DNA of 64,000 nt, taken from a virus. Where the stretch lies: the IMG/VR virus record IMGVR_UViG_3300020419_000005. One strand, written 5' to 3'. Both the position numbers and the translations under genes were made by a program. Under the pieces are notes generated by a model. It was not told the origin of the DNA. It saw only the letters and a program-made list of their open reading frames with translations, and searched no databases. Shown here in pieces: positions 1 to 33,385 of the stretch. Numbering within the stretch: the stretch's first letter is position 1; each line of letters opens with the position of its first letter.

Positions 1-392
1 TCTATGTTACTAACGTAAGAATACTTGTGTTGAAGTATTAACCCATCACCCAAATACACCCCTGCGTGTTTAATAAGACTATTGGATAAACCATCAGCAA
101 TACCGAATGAGAAGCACACCACATCATTCTTTTTTAAGATACTCTTATACCAATCTATACCATCCCATTCTCCTTCATCCTTCTTGAATATAACTCCCCA
201 ACCCTCTGCTTCTATATCTTCTATCTTATATTCCCTTACAAACATACTGTAATCCTTAGAGAAGGTCTGAATACCAGTATCTTTCATATAATCATAGATC
301 AGTGTGAAACATCCTCCACCTCTCTGCTGTTTCCAAGGGCGACCTAACCAGGGGGAGTAATCATTCTCGTACTTTTTTATCAAATTGTCCAT
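1..392 (-). CDS. NlpC/P60-family protein (lambda gpK-like C40 fold), 3' end outside window
   Basis: Manual translation from ATG at 392: MDNLIKKYENDYSPWLGRPW..GGGCFTLIYDY...KHAGVYLGDGLILQH, which carries the Cys and His-x-Gly-x-Tyr-x-Gly-x-Gly-x4-His motifs of NlpC/P60. Confidence 0.75.
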   Translation of the reverse strand, partial: MDNLIKKYENDYSPWLGRPWKQQRGGGCFTLIYDYMKDTGIQTFSKDYSMFVREYKIEDIEAEGWGVIFKKDEGEWDGIDWYKSILKKNDVVCFSFGIADGLSNSLIKHAGVYLGDGLILQHKYSYVSNI

Positions 393-503
393 AGGTAAAA
401 TTTTTTCTGGGGATTTTTTTATATATCAGGGTACCTTAAATGCGTTTTCGATAATATAGCAAACCCTATACTTTTGTAGGTTAGTCAAAAAAGATTTTTT
501 TAA

Positions 504-527
504 TATGCCACTTTTCCGATTGGCACA
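504..527. promoter_or_regulatory. Imperfect palindrome TATGCCAC-N8-TTGGCACA (early-promoter TG(G/T)CACA family)
   Basis: Same 8-8-8 architecture as copies at 7832, 9158, 10367 and 12134. Confidence 0.5.
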
Positions 528-531
528 AGGC

Positions 532-556
532 GAAAATGATAATCGTTTTCATTCTC
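532..556. promoter_or_regulatory. Fur-box-like site
   Basis: GAAAATGATAATCGTTTTC matches GATAATGATAATCATTATC at 16/19; an overlapping second box offset by 6 bp matches 14/19. Confidence 0.5.
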
Positions 557-575
557 ACCTGTGTCACCTCTGAGA

Positions 576-785
576 CTACCAGAGATACGTAACTTTTTTA
601 TTCTCAGGGAATTGTATTTTATCCCCAACTAAAATTGCGTCATACTTAGTTAATAGATGGAATGTTTGCTTCATAAAATTTAAAGCACCCTCTAGAGATA
701 AATCGCTGATTAACTCAGCATCAAATCTTTTCTTATAGTAAGTTGTAGTTTGGAATTGCTTGAAAGTTATTTGATTAAGTTCCAT
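576..785 (-). CDS. hypothetical early protein
   Basis: ORF track; preceded by TATAAT promoter and AACACTA leader. Confidence 0.7.
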   Translation of the reverse strand: MELNQITFKQFQTTTYYKKRFDAELISDLSLEGALNFMKQTFHLLTKYDAILVGDKIQFPENKKVTYLW

Positions 786-912
786 AGTGGGTTGCTTAGT
801 GTTGTTATATTAATTATAGCGAATTATTCCCCCCTATGCGAACTAATTAGAATATATGTTAAATTGCTGTTATTATGACAATCACGTTACATAACTCTTG
901 AAAAAAACCGCC

Positions 913-940
913 TTGCGTGCTAACTTCCTAAGACTACAAT
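913..940 (+). promoter_or_regulatory. Plus-strand sigma70-like promoter (antisense to the early region)
   Basis: TTGCGT-16nt-TACAAT with an upstream A8 tract. Confidence 0.45.
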
Positions 941-1015
941 AACCTAAGATATTAATAGAGATATAAAATTGAAAAGTATATTTATTTTAACCTTTTTAAT
1001 TTATACTAAATCTAT

Positions 1016-1378
1016 TCATTTATACCGTAAGTTTTTAAAATGATCGTTTACTTTGTTCCCATCTATATGTCTCACTTGCCTATGATCTATATTAGTTATT
1101 TGTTCTTCTTCTATTGTTTCCGCACTTATAAAAGCACTTGCTACAAGTCTGGCAATTCTTCTTACAACTGTTTTCCCTTCTTTTCTGAGAGTTACTCTCT
1201 TGTAACCGTTTTCATTAATATGAGTCTGTAATTGTTTCCACTTTCCCCACTTAGTAGAGAATACTTCTCCATTCTCTTTTATGTAATAATCTTCATACTG
1301 TGGTAGTGCCTTATACAACTTTCCGCTATCATCAACAAAAGTTTCCGCATCAACTTTTTTAAACGTGTAAATAGTCAT
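1016..1378 (-). CDS. NUMOD4-HNH endonuclease
   Basis: YKALPQYEDYYIKENGEVFS (NUMOD4-like), GYKRVTL..RIARLVASAFI, VRHIDGNKVNDHFKNLRY (HNH_3-like). Confidence 0.8.
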   Translation of the reverse strand: MTIYTFKKVDAETFVDDSGKLYKALPQYEDYYIKENGEVFSTKWGKWKQLQTHINENGYKRVTLRKEGKTVVRRIARLVASAFISAETIEEEQITNIDHRQVRHIDGNKVNDHFKNLRYK

Positions 1379-1394
1379 TATTTTAAAGGATAAT

Positions 1395-1422
1395 AAAAAA
1401 AGGACTTTGTTAGAGTCCTTTT
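1395..1422. terminator. Bidirectional intrinsic terminator
   Basis: A-tract-GGACT-TTGTTAG-AGTCC-T-tract. Confidence 0.8.
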
Positions 1423-1453
1423 ATATAGGTATTTAATTAAAACCCTTTTATGC

Positions 1454-1993
1454 TTAGAAATTGTTGAAAATGTGATTATCCCACTCGCAATAATCATAAC
1501 TTAGGTTATTATCCCATATTTTGTTATAATCAATAGAGGACTCTATCCAAGTTGGTAAGTCTCTTGAAATATAACCACAATCTGAGATTAAGTTTTCTGT
1601 GAATTCTGCTCCACTTTCCCACTTTCCCATATATGAGTCTTCTAAGTGCATCAAGTCAGCAATATCGAAAATTGAAATAAATGCTTCAATAATCTCATCA
1701 ACTGGCGAATCATAGTAACGTAACTCTTGAGATACGTTTTCATATGTGTCGATATGCTCGATAGCGTCATCAATATCAAGTTCAAAAGTCTCTTGAAATT
1801 CTTGAATTTCGTCAAGTCTCTCTGTACCTTCTTCAAGTGCTATCTCTGTAACTTTAGAAAATTCTACTCCATAGTCAGTAGAGAATTGTAAACTACGGTC
1901 AACAATAGCACTAAGTTCAGTAATTCTTGACTTTCTTAAGTCTGCATTAATCTGATCTAGTCTAGATTGCTGAGAGTTAGATAAAGTTTGCAT
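1454..1993 (-). CDS. ArdA-like antirestriction (DNA-mimic) protein
   Basis: Very acidic; C-terminal EDSYMGKWESGAEFTENLI..DLPTWIESSIDYNKIW..LSYDY resembles the ArdA C-terminal domain. Confidence 0.7.
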   Translation of the reverse strand: MQTLSNSQQSRLDQINADLRKSRITELSAIVDRSLQFSTDYGVEFSKVTEIALEEGTERLDEIQEFQETFELDIDDAIEHIDTYENVSQELRYYDSPVDEIIEAFISIFDIADLMHLEDSYMGKWESGAEFTENLISDCGYISRDLPTWIESSIDYNKIWDNNLSYDYCEWDNHIFNNF

Positions 1994-2011
1994 TTGGGAT
2001 TTAAGTGTTGT

Positions 2012-2063
2012 TATATTAATGATAACATAAATTTTTGATTTATGTCAAGAAAAAAGAGAATTT
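2012..2063 (-). promoter_or_regulatory. Early sigma70 promoter cassette, copy 1 of a 52-bp direct repeat
   Basis: TTGACA..TGtTATCAT; 50/52 identical to 2367-2418. Confidence 0.85.
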
Positions 2064-2344
2064 TATACTTTCTTAAGGTTTACATATCCCTCATAATAAG
2101 TAATTGCAAGTTCTAAAACAATTTCAAAAACCTCTGTTGAAACATAAATTTCATTATCAAAAACGTAAGAATCTCTTTTCATTAAGACTTCTAAAACGTT
2201 ATGGGCAATATCTTCTAAATCTTTTTGAGTAAAAACAGTTGCCTTCCACCCACCAGTATAGTTAAATCTTTTATCAAGTGTTTTAACTAAATCCTCTGTT
2301 GTAACTGTGGATAGGTCAAGAGCGAAATTTTTGATTTTTGACAT
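2063..2344 (-). CDS. hypothetical early protein (start revised to MSKIK)
   Basis: The longer ORF start lies inside the promoter; AACACT leader precedes the ATG at 2344. Confidence 0.7.
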   Translation of the reverse strand: MSKIKNFALDLSTVTTEDLVKTLDKRFNYTGGWKATVFTQKDLEDIAHNVLEVLMKRDSYVFDNEIYVSTEVFEIVLELAITYYEGYVNLKKV

Positions 2345-2366
2345 TTTGGGAAAAAAGTGTTTTGTA

Positions 2367-2418
2367 TATATTAATGATAACATAAATTTTTAGTTTATGT
2401 CAAGAAAAAAGAGAATTT
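2367..2418 (-). promoter_or_regulatory. Early sigma70 promoter cassette, copy 2
   Basis: TTGACA..TGtTATCAT; 50/52 identical to 2012-2063. Confidence 0.85.
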
Positions 2419-2427
2419 AATATTCTC

Positions 2428-2676
2428 TTAATATTCTCCCCATATTCTAAGATATGCGTTAATCTCTGCTAATGTGCAAGAATATTTGTACTCAGCAGCA
2501 TTACCAGTAATAAATCGCCCAAAACTATTAGTTAATGCTATCTCAAATAATCCTTCTTTAGTGTATTCTAGGATAGATGCACCAAAGTTATTATTTGGGA
2601 AATTTATCTTACTTACTGTTGTATCTGGGATATTTCCCTTTTCTGTAGCGTAAGGATAGAATTCAAACATAATCAT
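2428..2676 (-). CDS. hypothetical early protein
   Basis: ORF track; own promoter and AACACT leader. Confidence 0.7.
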   Translation of the reverse strand: MIMFEFYPYATEKGNIPDTTVSKINFPNNNFGASILEYTKEGLFEIALTNSFGRFITGNAAEYKYSCTLAEINAYLRIWGEY

Positions 2677-2761
2677 TAAGTGTTGTTATTACTATGATAA
2701 CATAAAAATTTGATTATGTGAGACTTTTTTTAAAATGAATTGTTAAGAAATTATAAAGCAT

Positions 2762-2797
2762 AAAAAAAGGTTAGAGTTCCCACGCTCTAACCTTCTT
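2762..2797 (-). terminator. Intrinsic terminator
   Basis: AAGGUUAGAG-CGUGGGAA-CUCUAACCUU followed by a U-run. Confidence 0.85.
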
Positions 2798-2913
2798 TAA
2801 TTGAATATGTTAAGATATATTACAATCAGTTGCAATATTAACCCTAGTGTGAGTTAGGATTAATAACTGGACTTACATCAAGGGAACACTAAACCCTTAA
2901 ATGCCAGTAACGT
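2762..2913 (-). ncRNA. Candidate structured RNA (three hairpins plus terminator) in the 3' UTR of 2914-3345
   Basis: HP1 ACUGG-CAUUUAAGGG[UUUAGUGUU]CCCUUGAUG-UAAGU-CCAGU; HP2 11-bp stem with loop ACUCACAC; HP3; G-U pairs form only on the minus strand. Confidence 0.55.
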
Positions 2914-3345
2914 TTAACCTAGTGGGTAGTATCCGTTAGTGTTGAAATAGTCTATATCTGAAATAGTTAAATGCTTTTCAAATACTTTCATACCTTCATA
3001 AAATTGAATCTCAGCACCAGTTAATGTGTCTACTAAAATCCATTGCTTTTTATGTTGCTTTATATAAACTCTATCCTTAGTTAGTTCACTAAGAATTGCG
3101 TTTAATCTCTCTTTAGTTGTTTTGGTTCTAAAACCGCCATTATACAATTTAACTGACCTGTAACCAAAGTGTGTGTGGTCAATTTCTGCTATAACAGTAT
3201 CGTAAAATTTTACGTCAACAATGTTAGAACCGTCTTGTCTAGTAATAACTTCAGTATTACCTAGTCCAGTTCCCTTAGTGTTGCACTTCATCATAGCGAA
3301 AATTGCTGATGTTGTACTGGGTTTTGAAAAAGTCAAGTTGGTCAT
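2914..3345 (-). CDS. hypothetical early protein of a type common in cyanophages
   Basis: LYNGGFRTKTTKERLNAIL motif; AACACTATG leader. Confidence 0.75.
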   Translation of the reverse strand: MTNLTFSKPSTTSAIFAMMKCNTKGTGLGNTEVITRQDGSNIVDVKFYDTVIAEIDHTHFGYRSVKLYNGGFRTKTTKERLNAILSELTKDRVYIKQHKKQWILVDTLTGAEIQFYEGMKVFEKHLTISDIDYFNTNGYYPLG

Positions 3346-3416
3346 AGTGTTTTTTGCTTATGAGTCTATTCTAGCAAAGAATAGTGGTATATGTGGATTG
3401 AATTGTTAAGAGAATC

Positions 3417-3548
3417 TTAAGACTTTTTTTTCTTAGCGTCTCTAACCATTTTATTAAACTTCTTACTTTGTTTTGGACTCATACCGCAAAAATAGTTTAA
3501 TAAGTTGCCTTCATATTGATCGGCAAGTGCTATAAGGTCATTATTCAT
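3417..3548 (-). CDS. small hypothetical protein (43 aa)
   Basis: Manual: MNNDLIALADQYEGNLLNYFCG...; TAATG coupling with the upstream ORF. Confidence 0.6.
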   Translation of the reverse strand: MNNDLIALADQYEGNLLNYFCGMSPKQSKKFNKMVRDAKKKKS

Positions 3549-3682
3549 TAGTAAGTACCTCTTAATAAGTTCTTACTGTTGTTAAACTGGTCAATAAGTG
3601 CTTCAGTTTTAGCGTTTTGTTTCGCTATTTCCTTATCGGCAAATTTGATAAGTCTGTGAAGCATTTGTAAATCCTTATCCAT
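3548..3682 (-). CDS. small hypothetical protein (44 aa)
   Basis: Manual: MDKDLQMLHRLIKF...; promoter and AACACTA leader upstream. Confidence 0.6.
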   Translation of the reverse strand: MDKDLQMLHRLIKFADKEIAKQNAKTEALIDQFNNSKNLLRGTY

Positions 3683-3758
3683 AATGTTTAAATTAGTGTT
3701 GTTTGGATATATCCAATATAAGGGAAAATTAGGATAAATGCAATAGGAAAACAGATTC

Positions 3759-4001
3759 TTAACATTTTTTTAACAATTCATCTTTTCCTCTTTGAATATA
3801 TCCCTTTTTATATGATTCAACTGAAATTTCGCTTATATTCTCTATTTCTTCTTCAGTTAAACCTGATTCTTCAAAAATTAGTGCATTATCACTAAATTTT
3901 GTTAGAGTTTCAATTACTTCTTCAAAAGAAAAATCTCTATTGATAGCATTTTCGCCAAATGCAATTTCAAAAACTTCTTCAATAAATTCATTTTGTGTCA
4001 T
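3759..4001 (-). CDS. acidic hypothetical early protein
   Basis: ORF track; ATGA coupling. Confidence 0.7.
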   Translation of the reverse strand: MTQNEFIEEVFEIAFGENAINRDFSFEEVIETLTKFSDNALIFEESGLTEEEIENISEISVESYKKGYIQRGKDELLKKC

Positions 4002-4135
4002 TTGATTAAATCCTTATGTAATTTGATTAAAATTGATGAATTAACATCTATAATTTCAGTTTTCTTATCATCATTTTCAGAATAATGAAAGTTTAAACAC
4101 TCTATCATATAGAGTAACTCTTTTTGTGTAAACAT
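3998..4135 (-). CDS. small hypothetical protein (45 aa)
   Basis: Manual: MFTQKELLYMIECLNFHY...; coupled at both ends. Confidence 0.6.
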   Translation of the reverse strand: MFTQKELLYMIECLNFHYSENDDKKTEIIDVNSSILIKLHKDLIK

Positions 4136-4335
4136 TATACAATTCCCTCTTCAACTAATCCCATTATGTTGCCTGTTTCATCAACTATTTCCCCAGTTTC
4201 GTTGTCCCTGACACAACTGTATTCATAATCACAACCAAATTCAAAGGATAAATCCATTGCTTTTTGTAAATCGTCAGTAAATACCTCTGAATTGAATAAT
4301 CTGGGTGTTTCAACTGTGTATTTGAAATTGTCCAT
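4135..4335 (-). CDS. acidic hypothetical early protein
   Basis: ORF track; TTGACA promoter and AACACTAAA leader. Confidence 0.7.
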   Translation of the reverse strand: MDNFKYTVETPRLFNSEVFTDDLQKAMDLSFEFGCDYEYSCVRDNETGEIVDETGNIMGLVEEGIV

Positions 4336-4415
4336 TTGTTTTTAGTGTTTGTATGTTATGATTTATTATTGCATATAATTCTGTTATATGTCAATAAGGA
4401 AATATAAAGAGAATA

Positions 4416-4673
4416 TTAAGATAATATTCCCATTTTTGTTGCTGTTTGTTTAGTTGCTCTACGCTCTATAACAAAATCCCTTACTCTCTCTCTATCAAGA
4501 GAATCCCCACCGCCCCAAGTAACGTGAGTTCCAACTTCGCATAAATCAAGATAGTTTAAAGTTGCAAGTGCTAACTCTTCCCTAGTTAAACCGTCTATAG
4601 GGTAAAGTACATCAGGGTGACTAGGTGAATAGAATGATTCACAATAATCAAGAAATTCTTTAAAGTTGTCCAT
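4416..4673 (-). CDS. hypothetical early protein (start revised to MDNFKEF)
   Basis: AACACTATG at 4671-4679; WGGGDSLDRERVRD motif. Confidence 0.75.
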   Translation of the reverse strand: MDNFKEFLDYCESFYSPSHPDVLYPIDGLTREELALATLNYLDLCEVGTHVTWGGGDSLDRERVRDFVIERRATKQTATKMGILS

Positions 4674-4745
4674 AGTGTTTTTTGTAGATGAATCCATCAT
4701 AACATAAAATAATGAATGATGGATATATGAATTGTTAAATAAATG

Positions 4746-4991
4746 TTAAGAAAATAAATCTGAACATAATGATCTATGAATCATAAACAATTTATCTAAA
4801 TCGCTTGAATCAAAACTTATCCATTCTGAGACGTATTCCCATCTATCAAAATCTGTAACCATTCCATCAAAATCTGGTGCTGAACAAAAATCCTTATTTT
4901 CGTCTAACCAAAATGACCTTCCAAAGTGCATAGAATGAGTTACTCTCAATTCTATTGATTGATTCCACTCATATGTTGATAAAGTAGGCAT
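4746..4991 (-). CDS. hypothetical early protein
   Basis: ORF track; own cassette. Confidence 0.7.
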   Translation of the reverse strand: MPTLSTYEWNQSIELRVTHSMHFGRSFWLDENKDFCSAPDFDGMVTDFDRWEYVSEWISFDSSDLDKLFMIHRSLCSDLFS

Positions 4992-5065
4992 AGCGTTTAA
5001 AGTGTTGTTATATCCAATATATCATAAAATAATCAATATTGGATATATGAATTGTTAAGAAATAA

Positions 5066-5254
5066 TTAAAAGACGTAACAGTTATGAATAAACATTAATT
5101 CTTCATACTGTTCTGTTGAATATGCTCGTTTATCCTGTATGTTGAAATCCGACCAATCGCAACCATCTAATTTGATTTCCAAATTTTCGTATTCTGAATT
5201 CCATCGATGTAAAATTTTTGTACCATCAATTTGAGAGATAAATTTTCTTATCAT
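5066..5254 (-). CDS. hypothetical early protein
   Basis: ORF track; AGGAG upstream. Confidence 0.65.
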   Translation of the reverse strand: MIRKFISQIDGTKILHRWNSEYENLEIKLDGCDWSDFNIQDKRAYSTEQYEELMFIHNCYVF

Positions 5255-5255
5255 T

Positions 5256-5486
5256 TTAAAAAACTCCTTCTAGTGATAATTGAGTATCGGCAAATACTTC
5301 TTCTTCGATTTCGTCTATTACTTCGTTGTATTCGCCATAATCTTCAGAATAGTCATCCCAATCATAATCCCCATTTTCAAAAATTTCTCTTGCGTGTTCC
5401 TGACTTCTTGCCATTATGGTATAAGTACCATATTTTTCAAATTTTGTTGTAACGTAGAAGCGTTTTTCTGTAGTTAGTTGTTTCAT
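5256..5486 (-). CDS. acidic hypothetical early protein (start MKQLTT)
   Basis: ORF track, start trimmed to remove overlap. Confidence 0.7.
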   Translation of the reverse strand: MKQLTTEKRFYVTTKFEKYGTYTIMARSQEHAREIFENGDYDWDDYSEDYGEYNEVIDEIEEEVFADTQLSLEGVF

Positions 5487-5490
5487 ATTA

Positions 5491-5754
5491 TTAACCCTTC
5501 GCTTCCATTTTCTGTTCAAATGCTAGTCTATCCCTTTCTTCGGGTGTAGTAACCGTTTCTGGGTCATACTGAGCGTTATATGCTTCTTGAAAGTCAAATC
5601 CTAGCATACCGTCAACGATTTCCTGTAATTCGTCAATATCTGTTTCAAATTGACTAAACCAAAAATCTTGATTCATAGGATGCTTATTATCGTTTTCTTT
5701 ACGATAGTTTTCTAGGTCAGTTTGGAACTGTTCTAAAATTTTTTCAAAGTTCAT
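5491..5754 (-). CDS. acidic hypothetical early protein
   Basis: ORF track; AACACTATG leader. Confidence 0.7.
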   Translation of the reverse strand: MNFEKILEQFQTDLENYRKENDNKHPMNQDFWFSQFETDIDELQEIVDGMLGFDFQEAYNAQYDPETVTTPEERDRLAFEQKMEAKG

Positions 5755-5833
5755 AGTGTTTTATGTGTTCTTGTATCCACTATATCATAAGATAATGAAT
5801 AATGGATATATGAATTATAAAGAAATTGTTAAA

Positions 5834-6208
5834 TTACTTGTTGAATTGATCGTAAAAATCGTCACTATTCAGTAGTGGCAACTGTTCATAAGATAAACGA
5901 CATTCGGGGTCAGGTTGCATAAATGCAACTATATCGTCAGTAAAACTGGTTACGTCTCCTTCATAGGCACTATAATAAGTGTTTTCAAACTCATAATCTT
6001 CCCATTGAGCATTTTTCCAGTTTAATAAATCCCAAGAAAAAACGTCTTCTTCAACATCCGATGAGTAATTTTCATACTGTTCTCTTGTCAATACAACTTC
6101 TTCTAAGATAAATCTTCTTCTTACAAGTGTAACTAGATTGTCTGAGTCTATTTTTTCTTGACCCATTTGTTGTGCTAGTATCTGTTGATTAGGTGTTAAT
6201 TTACTCAT
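5834..6208 (-). CDS. acidic hypothetical early protein
   Basis: ORF track. Confidence 0.7.
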   Translation of the reverse strand: MSKLTPNQQILAQQMGQEKIDSDNLVTLVRRRFILEEVVLTREQYENYSSDVEEDVFSWDLLNWKNAQWEDYEFENTYYSAYEGDVTSFTDDIVAFMQPDPECRLSYEQLPLLNSDDFYDQFNK

Positions 6209-6348
6209 TGATGATAAACCTCATAATGTTGAATTGTGTCAAGTGCTTCGATTTGATGATCGTTTAACTCAAAGTCCATATCTCTGAGTATATCATACAA
6301 TTTAACCATATTGTAAATTTGATCGTTTGTTAATGGTATATTAATCAT
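6205..6348 (-). CDS. small hypothetical protein (47 aa)
   Basis: Manual: MINIPLTNDQIYNMVKLYDILRDMDFEL... Confidence 0.55.
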   Translation of the reverse strand: MINIPLTNDQIYNMVKLYDILRDMDFELNDHQIEALDTIQHYEVYHQ

Positions 6349-6562
6349 TTTCCATACCTCGCATTGAATCGTCAAATTTCCAATAGGTGTATAACCACTC
6401 GAAATTGTCTGTTAATGGTTCTTTACCATCTACAACAAATTCATCAAATAATGCTCTTGAATCCTCTGTACGGTTTTCATCAACTGCTCTGATGGTTGAT
6501 TTCATTATTGTGTCAATTAAGACATCAATAGATTTATCTAAAGTTTCGGTCATCATTGGCAT
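6341..6562 (-). CDS. hypothetical early protein
   Basis: ORF track. Confidence 0.65.
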   Translation of the reverse strand: MPMMTETLDKSIDVLIDTIMKSTIRAVDENRTEDSRALFDEFVVDGKEPLTDNFEWLYTYWKFDDSMRGMEND

Positions 6563-6720
6563 AAATCCTCAAATCTTTTTCCTACGATAGCATCTATAGA
6601 TACTGGGTCAAGATCTGACTCTTTAACGTCAAATCCTTCTTTTTTCAAATTTGCGAGTGATTCAGCAACAACCTCATCATAGAGTGTTTCTAAAATCGCT
6701 TCGTGATGTAAAACTGACAT
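6553..6720 (-). CDS. small hypothetical protein (55 aa)
   Basis: Manual: MSVLHHEAILETLYDE...KRFEDLCQ; AACACTA leader. Confidence 0.7.
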   Translation of the reverse strand: MSVLHHEAILETLYDEVVAESLANLKKEGFDVKESDLDPVSIDAIVGKRFEDLCQ

Positions 6721-6763
6721 AATAGTGTTTTGTGTCTTGATTTAATATTAAAGGATAATGTGA

Positions 6764-6997
6764 CTATTTCAAGTCTGGTAGTGCCACTTCTTTAACTGGC
6801 ATAGCATAGAGTATTTTTTCAAATGTTGCTTTGCTATCTTTTAATTTGTTCTTTTTGTACCATACTCTATACATATCAACGGTATTTGATGTATCATTAC
6901 CATTTGTTTCATTATTATAGAATGAGAAAAAGAACATCATAGAGTCAATTAAAATCTGTTGCTCTGTTTCGTTTAATGTTATGTTAAGTTGTTTCAT
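6764..6997 (-). CDS. hypothetical early protein
   Basis: ORF track. Confidence 0.65.
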   Translation of the reverse strand: MKQLNITLNETEQQILIDSMMFFFSFYNNETNGNDTSNTVDMYRVWYKKNKLKDSKATFEKILYAMPVKEVALPDLK

Positions 6998-6999
6998 AA

Positions 7000-7338
7000 T
7001 TAACAGTAAAATGAAGTTGGTCTTTTAGCAATTTTAGTCTGATCTTTTCTTTTCATTCTCAAAACCTCGAAATCTCTCTCAAGATCAAACGCTGTTTCTT
7101 TTGCTATTGGAAATTTAGTCTTACGTTGCTCTTTAGATAGTTCAAGTTCATTCTCTGTTAACCATTGATCTTTAATGACCTCTTGAACCTTCTTAAATGC
7201 CCCTACAACCGCATCTTTACCGTATCGGTCAAATGCTAGTCCTGACGTTGAATTGCTCTCGTCTAGGTCGCAATAACAGTAACCTAACTGATTTGCGATT
7301 AAACCTAGTTCTCTTGCTGTTAGATTTAATTGATACAT
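7000..7338 (-). CDS. hypothetical early protein
   Basis: ORF track; own cassette. Confidence 0.7.
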   Translation of the reverse strand: MYQLNLTARELGLIANQLGYCYCDLDESNSTSGLAFDRYGKDAVVGAFKKVQEVIKDQWLTENELELSKEQRKTKFPIAKETAFDLERDFEVLRMKRKDQTKIAKRPTSFYC

Positions 7339-7410
7339 TTTAGTTGTTTGGATTGTAATAGTTTAACATTATTATTATAATGGATATAATGACTAGAATT
7401 GTTAAGAAAA

Positions 7411-7677
7411 TCATAAGATTGCTTTTTCCTCCATTTTGTTGTCAATTAAATAAGCAATAAAATCATTCCATTCTGACCAATCTTGATCGTAAACTGAGTA
7501 ACAAATGTCTTTGATAAATTCATCATCAATTCTTTTTGTATCCCATTCTTCCCTATCGTATGTGTCAATAACAGATAATACATCTGATTTTATGTCAACA
7601 TAGTCCATAGCAAATTGCATAGGATTAGGGCAACTGTTTAACCAATTTTGGTATTCTTGTTGATTTTTATTGGTCAT
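7411..7677 (-). CDS. acidic hypothetical early protein
   Basis: ORF track; AACACTA leader. Confidence 0.7.
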   Translation of the reverse strand: MTNKNQQEYQNWLNSCPNPMQFAMDYVDIKSDVLSVIDTYDREEWDTKRIDDEFIKDICYSVYDQDWSEWNDFIAYLIDNKMEEKAIL

Positions 7678-7699
7678 TTAATTAGTGTTTAAATTGATA

Positions 7700-7790
7700 G
7701 TGGAGGAGGTTCGATTTTAAAATCTTTTCCACCGATGCTCTTAGTAGGACTAACCCACAATGTCGGGATGAGATTACCCTTGCCCTCCAC
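7700..7790 (-). ncRNA. Candidate 91-nt structured leader RNA
   Basis: Closed by a 7-bp stem GUGGAGG/CCUCCAC; internal stems CCGA/UCGG and GUGGG/CCUAC; starts 6 nt after a TGgTACATT -10 element. Confidence 0.5.
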
Positions 7791-7796
7791 ATTTAT

Positions 7797-7855
7797 AATG
7801 TACCATATCAACGGTACAATACAATAGATGATGTGACACTATGTGAATTGTCCTA
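7797..7855 (-). promoter_or_regulatory. Double-palindrome early promoter
   Basis: TGTGACAC-N8-TTGTCCTA, then TTGTAT-16-TACATT with an internal TGTACC/GGTACA dyad. Confidence 0.65.
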
Positions 7856-7975
7856 CTCTTCCCTCACTTCAAACAATTCATATGTAATCATATCAATCAG
7901 ATCTACGTCAAGATCTTCTTTAAGATAATCTCTGAGTTTCTTTGAACTCATTGCTTTAATTTCTTGATAGGTCAT
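7853..7975 (-). CDS. small hypothetical protein (40 aa)
   Basis: Manual: MTYQEIKAMSSKKLRDYLKEDLD... Confidence 0.55.
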   Translation of the reverse strand: MTYQEIKAMSSKKLRDYLKEDLDVDLIDMITYELFEVREE

Positions 7976-8187
7976 TATTTTAATTGAATGTGATAGTTAA
8001 ATTTGATAGGATAAAAACCACTACTGGCAATGATTTCTTCCCTTAAATCGTCTTCATTGTCTGCTTCATAAACACCGAGTGCTGAGTCTCTGATTGCAAT
8101 TTCTTCATCAAATGTTAGTTGGCACTCTGGGATACCATCGCCAAATTCACAAAAGTCAAACTCAATGTCTGTTACATCATACATCAT
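7975..8187 (-). CDS. acidic hypothetical protein
   Basis: ORF track. Confidence 0.7.
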   Translation of the reverse strand: MMYDVTDIEFDFCEFGDGIPECQLTFDEEIAIRDSALGVYEADNEDDLREEIIASSGFYPIKFNYHIQLK

Positions 8188-8371
8188 TAGTCATTTCCTC
8201 CATAAGTGAGTCAATTTCTTCAGCACAAAATCCGCACCTCCAACCTTCAACTTCATCGTTGTAAACTGGATAACGATTTACATATCTACCTGTTCCGAAT
8301 GAACATAGACTACCACAATCAACACATATTTCAGTTTTGAATGTATCTACTGGTTTACACATTAATTTCAT
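8177..8371 (-). CDS. small zinc-finger-like protein
   Basis: CVDC...CGFC cysteine pairs. Confidence 0.65.
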   Translation of the reverse strand: MKLMCKPVDTFKTEICVDCGSLCSFGTGRYVNRYPVYNDEVEGWRCGFCAEEIDSLMEEMTNDV

Positions 8372-8634
8372 TGTGCATACTCCTCAACTTCCTCTACTAC
8401 ATCATCAAAACCATCATCCCAATAGTTTTGGGCATCATCAAGAAATTCGACATCTGACATATTCTTATACAAGTCATCAAGGTCTGCTGTAACATAGGCA
8501 ACTAAGTCCTCTGTTGACATATTGTCAACTGCTCTCTCAACCAAAAATGATTTGAGTTCGTTAATTAGTGCGGGTGTAAAATCTTTTTTTACTTGTCTCA
8601 TTTTATTATGAGAGTAATATTCAAATTGTGTCAT
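8368..8634 (-). CDS. acidic hypothetical protein
   Basis: ORF track. Confidence 0.7.
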   Translation of the reverse strand: MTQFEYYSHNKMRQVKKDFTPALINELKSFLVERAVDNMSTEDLVAYVTADLDDLYKNMSDVEFLDDAQNYWDDGFDDVVEEVEEYAQ

Positions 8635-8636
8635 AA

Positions 8637-8867
8637 TTAGTGTGATCTGATAGTATCATACACTCTAACTGATAAAGTTTGGTCTCCAGAGGTGTCAATT
8701 TTTTCTCTGTCACACGCTTTACCAACTATTGTCCAAATTTGGTGTAGTTCTTCATCATTGAGGAATTCTGCCATATTGTAGTAAACTTCATTGCCCTCTT
8801 GATAAGGGTCATCATCAGGGAATGTATATTTCACTCCCTCTGGTTGGTATCCTCTTGGGTCTGTCAT
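8637..8867 (-). CDS. hypothetical protein
   Basis: ORF track. Confidence 0.7.
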   Translation of the reverse strand: MTDPRGYQPEGVKYTFPDDDPYQEGNEVYYNMAEFLNDEELHQIWTIVGKACDREKIDTSGDQTLSVRVYDTIRSH

Positions 8868-9097
8868 TATTTCCCCTCGTTTCTAAGTGCTTCTTCTGCA
8901 TCATCAACTAATTGTTTCTGATTTAGCATATGCTCAACTTTTTCTTGAGCAAATCCCTCTATCTTTTCATAGAACCAATCTGAGTCTGTAATGACATCAG
9001 TTTGATGATCTACTAATTCTGTGACATACGCTTTGATGACTTCGGCAAGTTTGTTTCCGAATGTCTCGTCAACGCTGTTTAACATTGGGTCAATCAT
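8867..9097 (-). CDS. hypothetical protein
   Basis: ORF track; AACACCAA leader. Confidence 0.7.
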   Translation of the reverse strand: MIDPMLNSVDETFGNKLAEVIKAYVTELVDHQTDVITDSDWFYEKIEGFAQEKVEHMLNQKQLVDDAEEALRNEGK

Positions 9098-9120
9098 TTT
9101 GGTGTTTGTTAACTATAATC

Positions 9121-9181
9121 TATTATTGCATAGCGTTATGTACTATGCAATTCCAGGTGTGACAGTATTATAACTGTCACA
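9121..9181 (-). promoter_or_regulatory. Double-palindrome early promoter
   Basis: Perfect TGTGACAG-N8-CTGTCACA (9158-9181) plus TTGCATAG-N9-CTATGCAA (9126-9150). Confidence 0.75.
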
Positions 9182-9677
9182 TAATCTGAGTACCTTGCTC
9201 TTTAATTATCCTATTACTAATAGTGTGACCTAAACGTGGGTCTTTTCTATTCTTAACTGTATTGAATTTCTTTTTCAATGCAGGGATGAGTTCATCTAAT
9301 ACTTGTTTCGCTGTCATTCGCCATACTTCAACGATTTTTCCATCTTTGTATCTGGCATAATAGTGATGATGATATTTTCCTATTTTCTCATCAACTAGAT
9401 AATTGACTTGCTTTTCCCAAGTATCTTGAACTGATATACCATTGTATGTCGCTGTCAACTTCTTACCTATGGTTGACTTATATTCTATGGGTAAGTCATA
9501 TTTGTCGTATGCGTCAGCACCAGAATAATCCTCTGCTACTGTATGACCGAGTACCCCTGCCATATGAATCTCTCTTGATCTGGCATAACTGAATGGGTCT
9601 CCCCAACCTTGCTCTTCGCAAAGTTTGTACATATTCTCAAATAATTGCTGATAGCGTTGTTCTGGTTTGTTCATCAT
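9177..9677 (-). CDS. PD-(D/E)XK restriction-endonuclease-like protein
   Basis: SREI...GADAYD..PIEYKST resembles the E..D..ExK catalytic motif. Confidence 0.5.
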   Translation of the reverse strand: MMNKPEQRYQQLFENMYKLCEEQGWGDPFSYARSREIHMAGVLGHTVAEDYSGADAYDKYDLPIEYKSTIGKKLTATYNGISVQDTWEKQVNYLVDEKIGKYHHHYYARYKDGKIVEVWRMTAKQVLDELIPALKKKFNTVKNRKDPRLGHTISNRIIKEQGTQIM

Positions 9678-9832
9678 AGTAAGGTGTCCTCTGATAATAG
9701 TGTTCCCCACTCAGTATAGACGTATGGGTACTGTTTTGCAAGTTTTTTAAAGTGATGGAAATCATCTAGTGATAATTCTTCATTTGTTTCGTGGTATTTT
9801 TGCCACCTAGTTTGCACTTCATTGAATGTCAT
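9674..9832 (-). CDS. small hypothetical protein (52 aa)
   Basis: Manual: MTFNEVQTRWQKYHE...; ATGA coupling at both ends. Confidence 0.6.
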   Translation of the reverse strand: MTFNEVQTRWQKYHETNEELSLDDFHHFKKLAKQYPYVYTEWGTLLSEDTLL

Positions 9833-10305
9833 ACTAATACCTCACCTTTTTCAATTTGATCTAACGCTCTACGAGTGCAGGGTGTTGCTTCATAGGATAG
9901 TATCTGGTCATAGTTCTCATCATATTGATGCTTTAACTCATACATCGCCCAGAATCCTTGACCTCTACCGTTTGGAACAAATATGTATGAATACTCTTGC
10001 CAACAATCAATCATAAAGAAATCTTTTCGTTTCTTACTGATAATTGGTTCTTCATTGTCTCCACCATAGTATGATGGTTTTGGGTCAGCGATAGGTGTAA
10101 ACTCTCCTGTTTCTACATTAAACTTACTGTCAGACCAACAGTTTGACATATTGCCACCGTCAATAAGTTTGTTTACTGATTCTTCAGTATTATAGTGAGT
10201 GAGTAATTTAACTCCTAGTCCTTCGGGGTATCCATCAAAGTGATGATATACAGATTTTATTGAACCATCTTCTAATTCAATTCCTATTCTTGATCTAGTT
10301 GACAT
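9829..10305 (-). CDS. conserved phage hypothetical protein
   Basis: MSTRSRIG...SVYHHFDGYPEGLG...EYSYIF, a widespread phage early family. Confidence 0.8.
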   Translation of the reverse strand: MSTRSRIGIELEDGSIKSVYHHFDGYPEGLGVKLLTHYNTEESVNKLIDGGNMSNCWSDSKFNVETGEFTPIADPKPSYYGGDNEEPIISKKRKDFFMIDCWQEYSYIFVPNGRGQGFWAMYELKHQYDENYDQILSYEATPCTRRALDQIEKGEVLV

Positions 10306-10329
10306 AATTGGTGTTTGTTAACTGAATCC

Positions 10330-10390
10330 ATTATAGACACAAAAAAACCCCCTGTCTAGGGGGCAATGTGACACTTACCAATGTGTCCCA
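10330..10390 (-). promoter_or_regulatory. Double-palindrome early promoter with embedded terminator
   Basis: TGTGACAC-N8-GTGTCCCA (10367-10390); CCCCC-N6-GGGGG-T7 hairpin; TATAAT. Confidence 0.7.
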
Positions 10391-10776
10391 AGATGCGTCA
10401 TTGTGTTCTTAAATGTGGTAAGAGTGGAACTATTAGTAATATCCGTTGTACTGACTCTTGCTGATGCTTCATCTTTACCTATGAGTCCGTCTTTGGTTAC
10501 AAATCCCCATACAGTAACTAATGCACCTCTATCTGAGGGTGCTGTTGCAACGATTTCTAGGTCGTCTCCTGCTGATCTACTAGCAAATGACCAAGTTACC
10601 TTTTCGTTATCTCCTGTTACTAAATCCTTTTTTGATTGTAATTTGTAATCAGAGAGACTTCCTGTACCTGCTGATGTCATTCTAGCATTGATGTTTGCTA
10701 ATCTGTATGCTTTCGCTTTCGCAACCAATTCAGTACACACGCTGTTAGTTGCAGTTATAGTTGCTGATGTTGCCAT
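10375..10776 (-). CDS. hypothetical, probably late/virion protein
   Basis: A/T/S-rich; TATAAATA late promoter 28 nt upstream; own terminator. Confidence 0.65.
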   Translation of the reverse strand: MATSATITATNSVCTELVAKAKAYRLANINARMTSAGTGSLSDYKLQSKKDLVTGDNEKVTWSFASRSAGDDLEIVATAPSDRGALVTVWGFVTKDGLIGKDEASARVSTTDITNSSTLTTFKNTMTHLGTHW

Positions 10777-10804
10777 TTTTACTATGTACTTTGTTTCGTA
10801 ATTC

Positions 10805-10812
10805 TATTTATA
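10805..10812 (-). promoter_or_regulatory. T4-type late promoter TATAAATA
   Basis: Exact match overlapping the helicase stop codon. Confidence 0.7.
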
Positions 10813-12079
10813 CCACTAATGACTCAGGAGGTAGTCCATTGATGAATATAGAATCTACAACTGTTTGTAATCTTCTGATTATATGCTTACCATAGTTTGC
10901 GTGGCAAGGTACGGTAACATATCCTGTTTTCTTCCTGTAAAAACTCAATGCACCCGCTTCAATTTTGCCCTCTCTAATGTCCTTAGAATCGTCTGTATCC
11001 ATTCTAATTACTCTACCTATAGTTTGTGCCATAGACACCACATCTAACTGTCTCAGGAGGATACAATGGGTCAATCCTGACACGTTGATACCTTCACTCA
11101 AGATACTGTAATGGAATATAATAAACTTCTTGTTTTTGTCTCTACCATATTGAGTGAGAGTATCGAAAAACTTTTCTCTGTTTACTTTTTGTCTATTAAC
11201 ATATGCACCAAACTTAGATGTAATATGCAAGAACTCAAATCCACGTTTCTCAAGTTGATATATCAAATCGGTTTGAGACATCATTGCTCCCAACATTCTG
11301 CTAGACGGTACACTAACAAGAACCTTATGTGCATCATCACTATCAAGTGTGTCCAGTATATCAGTAACAGTTTGACTATCAAGGTCAAATGCCTGTTTCC
11401 TGTCTCTATTCTCTTTAGTATGAAATGGAACTATGGTAGGAGGAATGATCGAACCATTGTCAATAAGTTCTTTTGCTTCAATATTACAAATAATATTTCC
11501 GTATATAGTTCCGTTGTTCATTCCCCTAGTATTGCGATAACTAATACGAGGAGTAGCAGTAAAAAAATATGTGGATTTAGAATGACGAGAAATAGACTCA
11601 GTAGGAGGACTAAAAGACCTCGTAACAGAGTTATGTGCTTCGTCAAAATAAGCACCATCAATACTAATATCAGAATCGACAACACGTTTCAAAGAGTGAT
11701 AAGTTGTAAAAATAATTAGATGTTTGGTACTATTGTCAACAAAATTCTTGATTTTATCTGACTTAGTTGTGCTGTAGTAATGTGTTTCGCCACTATGAAC
11801 GTGCATCACATCAATACCAACATTATAGTTACCATCAAGATTCTGCTCTAGAAACTCTGAGCATAACTGGTTCGCAAGTAATATGCGTGGTGCAACAACA
11901 ATAAAAGTTTTAGGATACCAATGTAGAGTTCCGCCTTCTGTTGTTTTTAATCGTCTTGTAAGATCGTGTATCATACACATAGTCTTACCACCACCAGTAG
12001 GTACAATGACCTGACCTTTGGAGTGGTTCTTCATAATATCGACAATACGTTTTTGGTGTGGTCGTAATGTAATCATCAA
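10808..12079 (-). CDS. SF2 DEAH-box helicase (type III restriction res-like)
   Basis: LRPHQ Q-motif, PTGGGKT, FDEAH, TATP, ILSEGINV, QTIGRVIR. Confidence 0.9.
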   Translation of the reverse strand: MMITLRPHQKRIVDIMKNHSKGQVIVPTGGGKTMCMIHDLTRRLKTTEGGTLHWYPKTFIVVAPRILLANQLCSEFLEQNLDGNYNVGIDVMHVHSGETHYYSTTKSDKIKNFVDNSTKHLIIFTTYHSLKRVVDSDISIDGAYFDEAHNSVTRSFSPPTESISRHSKSTYFFTATPRISYRNTRGMNNGTIYGNIICNIEAKELIDNGSIIPPTIVPFHTKENRDRKQAFDLDSQTVTDILDTLDSDDAHKVLVSVPSSRMLGAMMSQTDLIYQLEKRGFEFLHITSKFGAYVNRQKVNREKFFDTLTQYGRDKNKKFIIFHYSILSEGINVSGLTHCILLRQLDVVSMAQTIGRVIRMDTDDSKDIREGKIEAGALSFYRKKTGYVTVPCHANYGKHIIRRLQTVVDSIFINGLPPESLVV

Positions 12080-12096
12080 AGTGTTTTAATTCACTC

Positions 12097-12157
12097 CATC
12101 ATAAACATAAAAACCCCACGTTTCAATGTGGAGTGTGACAGTTATTAAATTGGTTAC
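12097..12157 (-). promoter_or_regulatory. Double-palindrome early promoter with terminator-like hairpin
   Basis: TGTGACAG-N8-TTGGTTAC (12134-12157); CCAC-N-GTGG hairpin with T-run; TATGAT -10. Confidence 0.65.
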
Positions 12158-12297
12158 TTGATACAATAATCTGCATCAACCTTACATAGTTCTTCTTGTA
12201 GTCTCTGGTTTCTCTCATTCCTGTCAATTTTAAATGTTGTACGAATGAGTGATAAAAACACAAGTCCAATAAAAATATATAACAAATAAGGTTTCAT
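12154..12297 (-). CDS. small membrane protein (47 aa)
   Basis: Manual: MKPYLLYIFIGLVFLSLIR... Confidence 0.6.
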   Translation of the reverse strand: MKPYLLYIFIGLVFLSLIRTTFKIDRNERNQRLQEELCKVDADYCIK

Positions 12298-12530
12298 AAT
12301 GTTTTATCGTAAGTATCTTTGAGTCTATTCAACTCATTGTGAATATACTCTAGTTTTTCCTGTAAGTACTCACTTGTCGGATATTCTGCTACTTGACAAT
12401 GAATTGACTCTACTTGTCTCATCACTATCTGTATGTCAGGTACATCAAACTTTTGTACTTGTTCAGTTTCAAGGTTGGTATAGTTTATCCTTCCTTGATT
12501 CCAATCAAATGTTTCGTAGTCGCCACTCAT
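12294..12530 (-). CDS. hypothetical protein
   Basis: ORF track, coupled. Confidence 0.7.
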   Translation of the reverse strand: MSGDYETFDWNQGRINYTNLETEQVQKFDVPDIQIVMRQVESIHCQVAEYPTSEYLQEKLEYIHNELNRLKDTYDKTL

Positions 12531-12724
12531 AAACCTAATTCCTCCTGTAATCCTTTTAAAATGATTTGTTCTAATTGTGCTTGAGATAACTCATTAAGCA
12601 TTGCCCAACGTGGGTCTTTTTTATCCCACTCTAACATAAATGAACCATCCTCATTTTGTATAATGTCTAACCCTTCATTTGGGTCAGAATCCAATTCCAC
12701 TTTGTTTAGTTCTTTTGGCATCAA
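12527..12724 (-). CDS. hypothetical protein
   Basis: ORF track; IIQNEDGSFMLEWDKKDPRW. Confidence 0.7.
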   Translation of the reverse strand: MMPKELNKVELDSDPNEGLDIIQNEDGSFMLEWDKKDPRWAMLNELSQAQLEQIILKGLQEELGL

Positions 12725-12890
12725 TAACCTCTACTTTATCAATAAGTTGATTGTAATTCCACCAACATTCTAACACCTCTTCATAACTTTGTAAAACCTT
12801 AACAGATTTATCTTTACAATGTACCCTATACCAATTTCTGTCATAAGGTTTATTTGATGTATTTGTAAAGTGTTCTAGTGGAACTATCAT
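12684..12890 (-). CDS. hypothetical protein
   Basis: ORF track, start trimmed to MIVPL. Confidence 0.7.
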   Translation of the reverse strand: MIVPLEHFTNTSNKPYDRNWYRVHCKDKSVKVLQSYEEVLECWWNYNQLIDKVEVIDAKRTKQSGIGF

Positions 12891-13111
12891 ACGACTTTCC
12901 CTTCTTTCACTTCCATATAATCCCAATTAGGGTCGTCTGGAGGGTCAATCCAAAACCAATATTCACGATTATATTCTGATGATACGAAAATCCTACCATC
13001 TTCCCTCTTATTCTCTATATATACGAAAGTGCTACCTCCCATATATGTTGCAAGGTTGATTTTTGCCTGTTCAGACTTTGCTTGAACTATTGCCAGTTGC
13101 CTTAATCCCAT
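12887..13111 (-). CDS. hypothetical protein
   Basis: ORF track. Confidence 0.7.
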   Translation of the reverse strand: MGLRQLAIVQAKSEQAKINLATYMGGSTFVYIENKREDGRIFVSSEYNREYWFWIDPPDDPNWDYMEVKEGKVV

Positions 13112-13257
13112 TTTCTTTTAAAGAGTTCTTCGTGTACCTTTTGATGTAAATCTTTGAGTTTGATACCATTATCATTCTCAATTTGTACCTGATTAGATGT
13201 TGATGTCAACATCATACAAGACTCAAGTGCTTGTAGTTCGTCTTTTGATAAGATCAT
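13102..13257 (-). CDS. small hypothetical protein (51 aa)
   Basis: Manual: MILSKDELQALESCMM... Confidence 0.55.
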   Translation of the reverse strand: MILSKDELQALESCMMLTSTSNQVQIENDNGIKLKDLHQKVHEELFKRKWD

Positions 13258-13580
13258 CTTTTTTTAATAGGTGGTAACATTTCATTTCCAGGGTGGTCAT
13301 TGGTTTTTCCCCTGTAATTCTTTACATTTTTGAAGTGTGAATCTTCAATCTCTAAATCATCCCAATCGGATTGCATAACGATTACATTTACCTGTCGTAC
13401 CCCAGTTCGGAAACTTTCGTCAGGTATTTCTCTAACACAAATAGTGATGTATTCATTACATATAAAACTGATAAATCCCTCATCATTTTTATACCTACAG
13501 GGCATACCAACTTCGAGAGATTTTAAAATGTTTCTAATTTCCAATGGAATTGACTCTGATAGAAATAGTGGGGTTGTCAT
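13254..13580 (-). CDS. hypothetical protein
   Basis: ORF track. Confidence 0.7.
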   Translation of the reverse strand: MTTPLFLSESIPLEIRNILKSLEVGMPCRYKNDEGFISFICNEYITICVREIPDESFRTGVRQVNVIVMQSDWDDLEIEDSHFKNVKNYRGKTNDHPGNEMLPPIKKR

Positions 13581-21816: not shown

Positions 21817-21819
21817 TAA

Positions 21820-25578: not shown

Positions 25579-25602
25579 AGTGTTCTACAGTCCTAATACT
25601 AT

Positions 25603-33185: not shown

Positions 33186-33216
33186 AAAGAAAGAGGTCGC
33201 TAGGGGACCTCTTTTT
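33186..33216. terminator. Bidirectional terminator between convergent genes
   Basis: AAAGAGGTC-GCTAGGG-GACCTCTTT. Confidence 0.8.
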
Positions 33217-33385
33217 ATTCGGGAAATTTTAACATCGTATTATGCTCTATCGTTTTTGCAGCGTCTGCTAGTGCGTCTCTGACAGTAGGTTGTTGACCTG
33301 TTGCCTGATAAGCAAGATTGTTTTGGTCTGTCATTGACCATCTCCACTGGTGCATTTCATTACAATACCAGAGTTGTATTTGCAT
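33215..33385 (-). CDS. conserved cyanophage hypothetical protein (56 aa)
   Basis: Manual: MQIQLWYCNEMHQWRWSMT... Confidence 0.7.
   Translation of the reverse strand: MQIQLWYCNEMHQWRWSMTDQNNLAYQATGQQPTVRDALADAAKTIEHNTMLKFPE

Follow-up and report, generated by a model that had tools for sequence, protein, structure and literature searches.

The viral record IMGVR_UViG_3300020419_000005 (IMG/VR) provided a stretch of 64,000 nucleotides, in the following called the window, which originates from a T4-like cyanomyovirus. In the 5' leaders of early transcripts of this phage the hexamer AACAC(U/C) stands ahead of the first start codon, in the place of a Shine-Dalgarno (SD) sequence. The word is enriched in these leaders, is constrained among close relatives, occurs without SD sequences, floats relative to the promoter while remaining tied to the AUG, and is specific for the phage and for its early gene class. 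The feature is real, statistically significant and conserved, and it is of a kind already known, namely ACA- or CA-rich enhancers and SD-independent initiation. What is new, as far as can be judged from the literature searched, is the setting, in which one exact word replaces the SD sequence on cyanophage transcripts of an entire temporal class and is accompanied by a complementary, conserved hairpin. By analogy to enterobacterial leaders, AACAC(U/C) may act as a position-flexible, ACA-type, SD-independent translation enhancer and anchor for the 30S ribosomal subunit, a reading that we consider about evenly balanced between being right and being wrong.

Position and enrichment of AACAC(U/C) in early leaders

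Nearly all genes of the window, which has a G + C content of 36%, are carried by the minus strand, so that AGTGTT and GGTGTT on the plus strand correspond to AACACU and AACACC in mRNA. The original prediction, made from the sequence alone, had named 15 such sites and had placed each of them between a -10 element and the first start codon, 0–12 nt from the latter. All 15 were recovered in this arrangement (13 AACACU and 2 AACACC on the coding strand), and the -10-like hexamers upstream of them are of the sigma70 type, often with an extended TGn. The sites, together with a second copy in one leader and two occurrences outside the early region, are as follows (all on the minus strand; ORF, open reading frame):

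798–803: AACACU in the leader of ORF 576–785; AUG 12 nt downstream; predicted at +4 of the mRNA
2004–2009: AACACU in the leader of ORF 1454–1993; AUG 10 nt downstream; TTGACA/TGnTATCAT promoter
2356–2361: AACACU in the leader of the ORF starting at 2344; AUG 11 nt downstream
2679–2684: AACACU in the leader of ORF 2428–2670; AUG 8 nt downstream
3346–3351: AACACU abutting the AUG of the 143-aa ORF 2914–3345; the leader reads AUAAGCAAAAAACACU
3695–3700: AACACU in the leader of ORF 3548–3682; AUG 12 nt downstream
4344–4349: AACACUAAA in the leader of ORF 4135–4335; AUG 8 nt downstream
4674–4679: AACACU abutting the AUG at 4673 (ORF to 4416)
5001–5006: AACACU in the leader of ORF 4746–4991; AUG 9 nt downstream
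5755–5760: AACACU abutting the AUG of ORF 5491–5754; retained in relative L086 behind a different promoter
5764–5769: AACACA, a second copy upstream in the leader of ORF 5491–5754; not conserved as such in all relatives
6724–6729: AACACU in the leader of ORF 6553–6720; AUG 3 nt downstream; GTCACA-box promoter
7684–7689: AACACU with the AUG of ORF 7411–7677 6 nt downstream; nearest good promoter ~105 nt upstream
9101–9106: AACACC in the leader of ORF 8867–9097; AUG 3 nt downstream
10310–10315: AACACC in the leader of ORF 9829–10305; AUG 4 nt downstream; preceded by a terminator and TATAAT
12080–12085: AACACU in the leader of the helicase gene 10808–12076; AUG 3 nt downstream
25579–25584: AACACU, one of a small number of non-early copies, abutting the AUG of ORF 24724–25578; late-type CTAAATA promoter
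33388–33393: AACACC outside the early region, ahead of the small ORF 33215–33385; AUG 3 nt downstream

For the window as a whole, with both strands counted, RGTGTT shows no significant enrichment (105 occurrences versus 92.7 expected). The enrichment over a composition-matched background on which the original prediction hinged was found in the leaders: AACAC is present in 13 of 31, where shuffled versions of these leaders gave an expectation of 2.2. When all 5-mers were counted in the 30 nt ahead of those genes that are separated by 45 nt or more from their upstream neighbor, AACAC ranked first and ACACU second, whereas the same count before closely packed genes returned GAGG and AGAGG instead. 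On the early-region strand, AACACY occurs 15 times in ~0.29 kb of leaders versus nine times in the remaining ~11.8 kb, which amounts to a ~67-fold higher density in the leaders. Alignment of the sites extended the consensus to W-A-A-[AC]-AACAC-[UC]-W-W. The motif had been described as common to two promoter classes and was in fact found behind at least three promoter architectures (TTGACA-N17/18-TGnTATCAT, a class with a TTCTTAACAATTC box, and a class with a GTCACA box); common descent of the cassettes therefore does not explain it.

Transcription start sites were predicted by placing them 7 nt after the -10 element, from spacing alone. The leaders defined in this way have a length of 15–26 nt and consist of 52% A, 24% C, 20% U, and 3% G (A + C 76%). 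The motif starts at predicted position +4 to +13 (~+105 in cassette 7684) and is predicted to be single-stranded, with an unpaired probability of 0.88. Its distance to the -10 element varies between 9 and 18 nt, except for the ~105 nt in cassette 7684, and its distance to the AUG is always 0–12 nt, with direct contact in three cassettes. In cassette 7684, a G-richer, structured insert of 91 nt (7700–7790, minus strand) separates the early promoter from the AACACU leader. Since the motif of this cassette lies far from the promoter and only 6 nt from the AUG, it is tied to the start codon and the RNA and not to the promoter, and it is read here as an RNA signal linked to initiation. In the relative L002 the insert is replaced by a gene for a 54-aa protein, and the 88-aa gene corresponding to ORF 7411–7677 is internal and led by an SD sequence. 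The insert itself is closed by a GUGGAGG/CCUCCAC stem and its fold has a z-score of just -1.0; no Rfam or tRNA match was obtained for it.

The leaders lack AGGAG, as had been noted, and an SD core occurs in none of the 15 (mean anti-SD duplex energy -0.13 kcal/mol). Among the internal cistrons of the same early region, 14 of 20 possess an SD core (mean -5.1 kcal/mol), and the motif is absent from these SD-bearing cistrons. The phage thus uses SD sequences for coupled genes and not for 5'-proximal ones. Like an SD sequence, the motif is located in translated genes within the final ~20 nt ahead of the AUG, but it differs from one by its lack of complementarity to the 3' tail of the 16S rRNA (GAUCACCUCCUAA; an SD 4-mer is found in 0 of 15 leaders), by a spacing of 0–12 nt where SD sites keep about 5–10 nt to the start codon, and by the placement of the real SD sites on internal cistrons. 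Two other known signal types were also considered and dismissed. Leaderless mRNAs do not agree with leaders of 15–26 nt at the predicted start sites, and a downstream element of the core promoter or an initially transcribed sequence would keep a fixed spacing to the -10 element or the start site, which the motif does not.

Late-type (NTAAATA) leaders of the window mostly lack the motif, with one clear exception at 25579–25584. The host side was represented by 400 kb sampled from the single-cell genome of a Prochlorococcus, with 263 upstream regions, in which AACAC occurred three times versus 6.3 expected and no CA bias was seen; start calls in this sample are crude, and the organism may not be the host of the phage. 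A host-wide AACAC signal was rejected on this sample, with the same reservation as to the host. The Prochlorococcus 16S rRNA, whose 3' end reads GAUCACCUCCUAA, contains a single AGUGUU, which is internal (position 816) and for which the chance of one match was estimated at ~0.36. As no AGUGUU is present at the 3' tail, pairing of the motif with an alternative site of the rRNA was rejected as well. Taken together, the Prochlorococcus sample, the 16S rRNA, and the late leaders indicate an element that is specific for the phage and for its early class and that does not represent an alternative rRNA-pairing site.

Conservation in close relatives and in the wider clade

Via the helicase, 80 related cyanomyovirus loci were collected, and additional contigs of the sub-lineage were obtained by a pattern of the 3' untranslated region (3'UTR) described below. 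In the listed ortholog leaders of the close relatives (L001, L002, L082, L085, and L086), AACAC is kept in 23 of 24 cases, some of which are identical between relatives. The motif survives indels following it, a duplication adjacent to the AUG, and, in L086, the exchange for a wholly different promoter. The orthologs of cassette 3695 in L002 and L086 contain an extra AACACU adjoining the AUG, and the copy in the helicase leader (12080) is lost only in L001, which reads GAACAUUG. Across the ortholog-leader columns of these five relatives, 127 of 132 motif columns are identical (96%) versus 319 of 424 other columns (75%; Fisher p = 7e-9, with pairs that are phylogenetically dependent). The AACAC motif is under purifying selection in the close relatives.

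In distant cyanomyoviruses, the top leader word is not AACAC itself. Throughout the clade, promoter-proximal leaders have an A + C content of 66–78% at positions -13 to -1, where internal genes peak in G. The density of ACA per 18 nt is 1.15 in promoter-proximal leaders versus 0.43 before internal cistrons and 0.75 in shuffles (174 non-redundant promoter-proximal leaders from the 80 loci; A + C 66%). Early leaders of phage P-TIM40 (L087), for example, contain ACAACAAACAAAC, GACACAAAGACAC, and AAACAC-AUG, and read AUAGACAACAAACAAAC-AUG, AACGACACAAAGACAC-AUG, and GGAGAAACAC-AUG up to the start codon. Judged from these comparisons, AACACY is best described as the sharp, lineage-specific form of the general CA-rich and ACA-dense early leader of T4-like cyanophages.

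Early cassettes of L003, L004, L008, L010, and L025 (+) have a fixed start context, TATAAT-N6-AUAAGCAAC(AC), and cassette 3351 of the window also starts with AUAAGCAA. In L003, L004, and L010 the sequence TATAAT-N6-AUAAGCAACACAGGAG is found, and AGGAG follows directly downstream of AACAC, as arranged in targets of the enterobacterial small RNA (sRNA) GcvB. The fixed context of the distant relatives points to a conserved initiating sequence, separate from the AACAC word with its floating position.

Several observations concern the promoters. A (GT)GTCACA box is located ~35–50 nt upstream of the -10 element in cassettes 6729, 7689, 9106, 10315, and 12085, and early promoters of P-TIM40 also carry it (GTGTCACA...ACTACCG...TATAAT); it probably is a clade-wide early-promoter element. 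According to the abstract of a 2016 study, Doron and co-workers have reportedly described a novel early regulatory element. ORF 7000–7338 is preceded by a hydrophobic mini-ORF of 24 codons (MIFLTILVIISIIIIMLNYYNPNN; 7340–7414, minus strand), the 3' part of which is kept in distant relatives. Over its first 45 nt, the mini-ORF is very similar to the TTCTTAACAATTC...ATATCCATTAT box that characterizes the second promoter class, and this box and the coding sequence of the mini-ORF may share their origin. A 120-aa ORF at 1016–1378 (minus strand) has neither the usual cassette promoter nor the leader and looks like a putative HNH-type homing endonuclease; a similar ORF follows a homologous terminator in L010.

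With respect to gene content, the window encodes a full-length glycine dehydrogenase (908 aa; 60772–63498, minus strand) with 72–73% identity to the proteins of the Prochlorococcus phages P-HM1 and P-HM2 and ~55% identity to picocyanobacterial GcvP. The helicase (10808–12076) has 54–59% identity to the enzymes of cultured myoviruses that infect Synechococcus and Prochlorococcus, and matches to cyanophage PHROGs were obtained for baseplate and tail genes and for two halogenases. The latter are neighboring genes of the tryptophan-halogenase family (20176–23304, minus strand; PHROG 2928) in synteny with P-TIM40. ARAGORN detected no tRNA or tmRNA in the window, and an Rfam scan of positions 1–14000 at E ≤ 1 returned no family.

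A complementary hairpin in a 3' untranslated region

The 143-aa ORF 2914–3345, whose AUG is abutted by the motif, holds in its own 3'UTR a hairpin complementary to it:

2866–2908, minus strand: hairpin 1 of a structured 3'UTR RNA (2755–2915), with the loop UUUAGUGUU at 2885–2893

The 3'UTR is predicted to form three hairpins and a terminator, and none of 200 shuffles folded as well (z = -3.9). Hairpin 1 has the loop UUUAGUGUU, the reverse complement of AACACUAAA, so that the leader word of cassette 4344 forms its full 9-nt complement. Fifteen homologs of hairpin 1 were found on viral and metagenomic contigs, 14 of which are distinct. With that of the window included, four stem variants exist (UAAGGG/CCCUUG, AAAAGG/CCUUUU, AAAAGU/ACUUUU, and UAUAGG/CCUAUA), which differ by compensatory changes, and the loop core UUAGUGUU is invariant over all of them; this covariation was taken directly from the sequences and not from column-wise pair counts. 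The homologs are confined to the sub-lineage with the sharp AACACY word. A second pattern scan of viral contigs returned the same four contigs again, a search for GUGUU-loop hairpins outside the sub-lineage gave only noise, and the regions downstream of the homologs of the 143-aa gene in distant relatives are unrelated to the 3'UTR of the window. For duplexes between the loop and the 15 leaders, a weak to moderate strength is predicted (-4.1 to -8.6 kcal/mol); loop and leaders do not covary, both partners being invariant.

Hairpin 2 of the same RNA (2755–2915, minus strand) has a loop at ~2836–2845 that reads ACUCACAC, or UCUCACAC in relatives. This loop has CUCACAC in common with ACUCCUCACAC, the ultraconserved Yfr1/Yfr10 motif of cyanobacterial sRNAs (PMC2190773, PMC6778093), but lacks the UCCU core. 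The terminator loop after the homologous gene in L010 likewise reads CUCACAC. The shared sequence could be a partial mimic of a host sRNA or a product of chance; hairpin 2 had no match in Rfam.

Function of the motif and alternative explanations

The closest parallel to the early leaders is found in enterobacteria. ACA triplets in the leaders of Salmonella yifK and dppA stimulate initiation without strict positioning, ACAA repeats enhance translation in the absence of an SD sequence, ribosomal protein S1 is the suspected reader, and GcvB, a G/U-rich sRNA, represses C/A-rich enhancers by covering them (PMC3879156). The window shares with the GcvB targets yifK, dppA, and gltI (PMC3879156) single-stranded ACA words in the leader and a loose spacing to the AUG: the [AC]AACAC contexts often hold two ACA triplets in a leader predicted to be unpaired, and the distance of 0–12 nt to the AUG shifts among orthologs. 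The GcvB paradigm also includes a G/U-rich silencer, for which the conserved UUAGUGUU loop with its predicted pairing is a candidate here. In contrast to the enterobacterial enhancers, the phage element stands alone, without an SD sequence, in leaders of 15–26 nt, and it consists of one exact hexamer on ~15 transcripts; moreover, the host is a marine cyanobacterium, in which enhancer activity would be assumed by analogy. CA-rich leaders of the omega type and ribosome standby sites (PMC5934652; CA repeats in PMC3879156) resemble the phage leaders in being short, unstructured, and G-poor, with possible SD-free loading of the 30S subunit, but their effects depend on composition and structure, whereas the phage word is conserved beyond composition. 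The literature searched contained no link between cyanophages and CA-rich or ACA motifs.

AACAC(U/C) is viewed as an RNA element in the 5' leader of early sigma70-type transcripts, ahead of their first cistron. With its one or two ACA triplets it could provide a position-flexible anchor for the 30S subunit, contacted probably through S1, so that an ACA- or CA-rich enhancer would take the place of the SD–anti-SD contact. Downstream cistrons in the same operons rely on ordinary SD sites. The complementary 3'UTR hairpin may silence the element in a GcvB-like manner, as an optional add-on of this sub-lineage only. The start sites, the enhancement of translation, and S1 as the reader are parts of this scheme that we infer. 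Of the original prediction, which had proposed a dedicated translation or stability signal, the RNA-level 5'-leader signal in the place of an SD sequence stands, as the motif floats relative to the -10 element, is linked to the AUG, is predicted to be unpaired, and is conserved. The word "dedicated" was too strong, because CA-rich and ACA-dense leaders occur clade-wide and ACA- or CA-rich enhancers were already known (PMC3879156).

Several points weigh against an enhancer. The start sites of this phage are predictions from the -10 spacing only. The persistence of an exact hexamer in the lineage, beyond what a composition-only model of unstructured, CA-rich leaders would demand, hints at a reader with sequence specificity. 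As late and internal genes do without the motif in their translation, it is not generally required, and the lack of an AACAC excess before the genes of the Prochlorococcus sample gives no sign that host ribosomes favor it. The known ACA enhancers were studied in enterobacteria and mostly alongside an SD sequence. The complementary hairpin loop, finally, may point to a role of the motif as a regulatory target, possibly its primary one.

According to this last alternative, which we regard as possible but rather unlikely, the motif is mainly the shared seed-match target of a trans-acting RNA encoded by the phage in the 3'UTR of ORF 2914–3345, whose loop UUUAGUGUU would pair with AACACU(AA) beside the AUG of first cistrons and stop or time the synthesis of early proteins. 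That the phage switches off its whole early regulon in trans by its own RNA, with UUAGUGUU pairing to ~13–15 first-cistron enhancers, is an equally tentative proposal; such control would be an RNA-only counterpart of T4 RegA and RegB and a phage version of GcvB acting on C/A-rich enhancers. The exact complementarity of the loop to AACACUAAA speaks for a role as sRNA target, as do the recurrence of the hairpin in 15 homologs with four compensatory stems and an invariant UUAGUGUU core, its occurrence in the same sub-lineage as the sharp AACACY word, and the precedent of GcvB on C/A-rich enhancers (PMC3879156). The chance of finding AGUGUU in ~30 loop positions is ~1% by a rough, post hoc estimate, and duplexes of -5 kcal/mol or stronger are predicted for 87% of the 15 leaders versus 15% of control start regions, a comparison that is partly circular. 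The pairing is, however, short and AU-rich (6–9 bp with two G-C pairs, and just 5 bp for the two AACACC leaders), loop and leaders are both invariant and thus do not covary, and processing and accumulation of the 3'UTR are assumptions of this explanation. Many cyanophages have CA-rich early leaders and no hairpin, from which it follows that the leader signal predates the hairpin; as these leaders are far more widespread, a role as sRNA target was ranked as a lineage-specific layer and not as the primary function.

A protein could also be the reader, with the motif as the operator of a cyanophage RegA or of another phage or host RNA-binding protein beside early AUGs; we consider this improbable. 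RegA of T4 recognizes sites close to the AUG in many early and middle mRNAs, is not strict about their sequence, and is autoregulated; in T4 and RB69 these sites are A/U-rich and without C. Like RegA operators and RegB sites in T4, AACAC(U/C) is a common cis-signal at many early initiation regions, which would permit class-wide post-transcriptional control, but it is A/C-rich and neither A/U-rich nor GGAG. RegA (PF01818) is encoded by the relatives P-TIM40 and L004 phage, yet the regA leaders of these two cyanophages have a GGAGG SD sequence and no AACAC, and no connection between RegA and the motif was detected; we know of no regB in cyanophages. A sequence-specific reader would agree with the exactness of the hexamer, with its pyrimidine at position 6 and the W-W behind it, whereas an operator that has to cover the start codon would be expected to keep a tighter spacing to the AUG than 0–12 nt.

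An action on DNA or at transcription initiation, as a start context for promoter escape or as the site of an early-promoter factor, appears highly improbable. It would agree with the position of the motif at predicted +4 in four cassettes (AACAACACU) and with the fixed TATAAT-N6-AUAAGCAAC start context of related phages, and a DNA-binding protein would find one more site in the single inverse copy, the AGTGTT that the hairpin has on the coding strand. On the other hand, the spacing to the -10 element is 9–18 nt within the window and 9–13 nt between orthologs of a single cassette, the motif of cassette 7684 is ~105 nt away from its promoter, another copy stands beside the AUG in a late-promoter leader, and operators are not usually 6-bp sites that always have the same orientation. 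Equally hard to credit is the assumption that a G-free, CA-rich 5' end determines the stability of early mRNAs by avoiding attack of the host RNase E or RNase J, or that the word was inherited without function along with duplicated promoter cassettes. The leaders are indeed strikingly G-poor (3% G) and several cassettes are clearly paralogous, but the hexamer is found behind at least three unrelated promoter architectures and outlasts indels and promoter swaps, composition alone yields ~2 occurrences and not 15, and the column-constraint test on orthologs argues against inheritance alone.

A considerable part of the Prochlorococcus and Synechococcus cells of the sea falls victim to T4-like cyanophages, and the motif bears on how the early "host-takeover" mRNAs of these phages capture ribosomes. 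The early operons of the window offer a clean natural contrast, with a short, G-free AACAC leader on the 5'-proximal cistrons and SD sequences on the internal ones. Should the motif prove to be an SD-independent enhancer, it would provide a compact and testable initiation rule for picocyanobacteria and a part for expression tools in organisms that are hard to engineer. If the hairpin is a regulator, this would be, to our knowledge, the first case of a lytic phage timing a temporal class of genes by an sRNA directed against a shared leader word.

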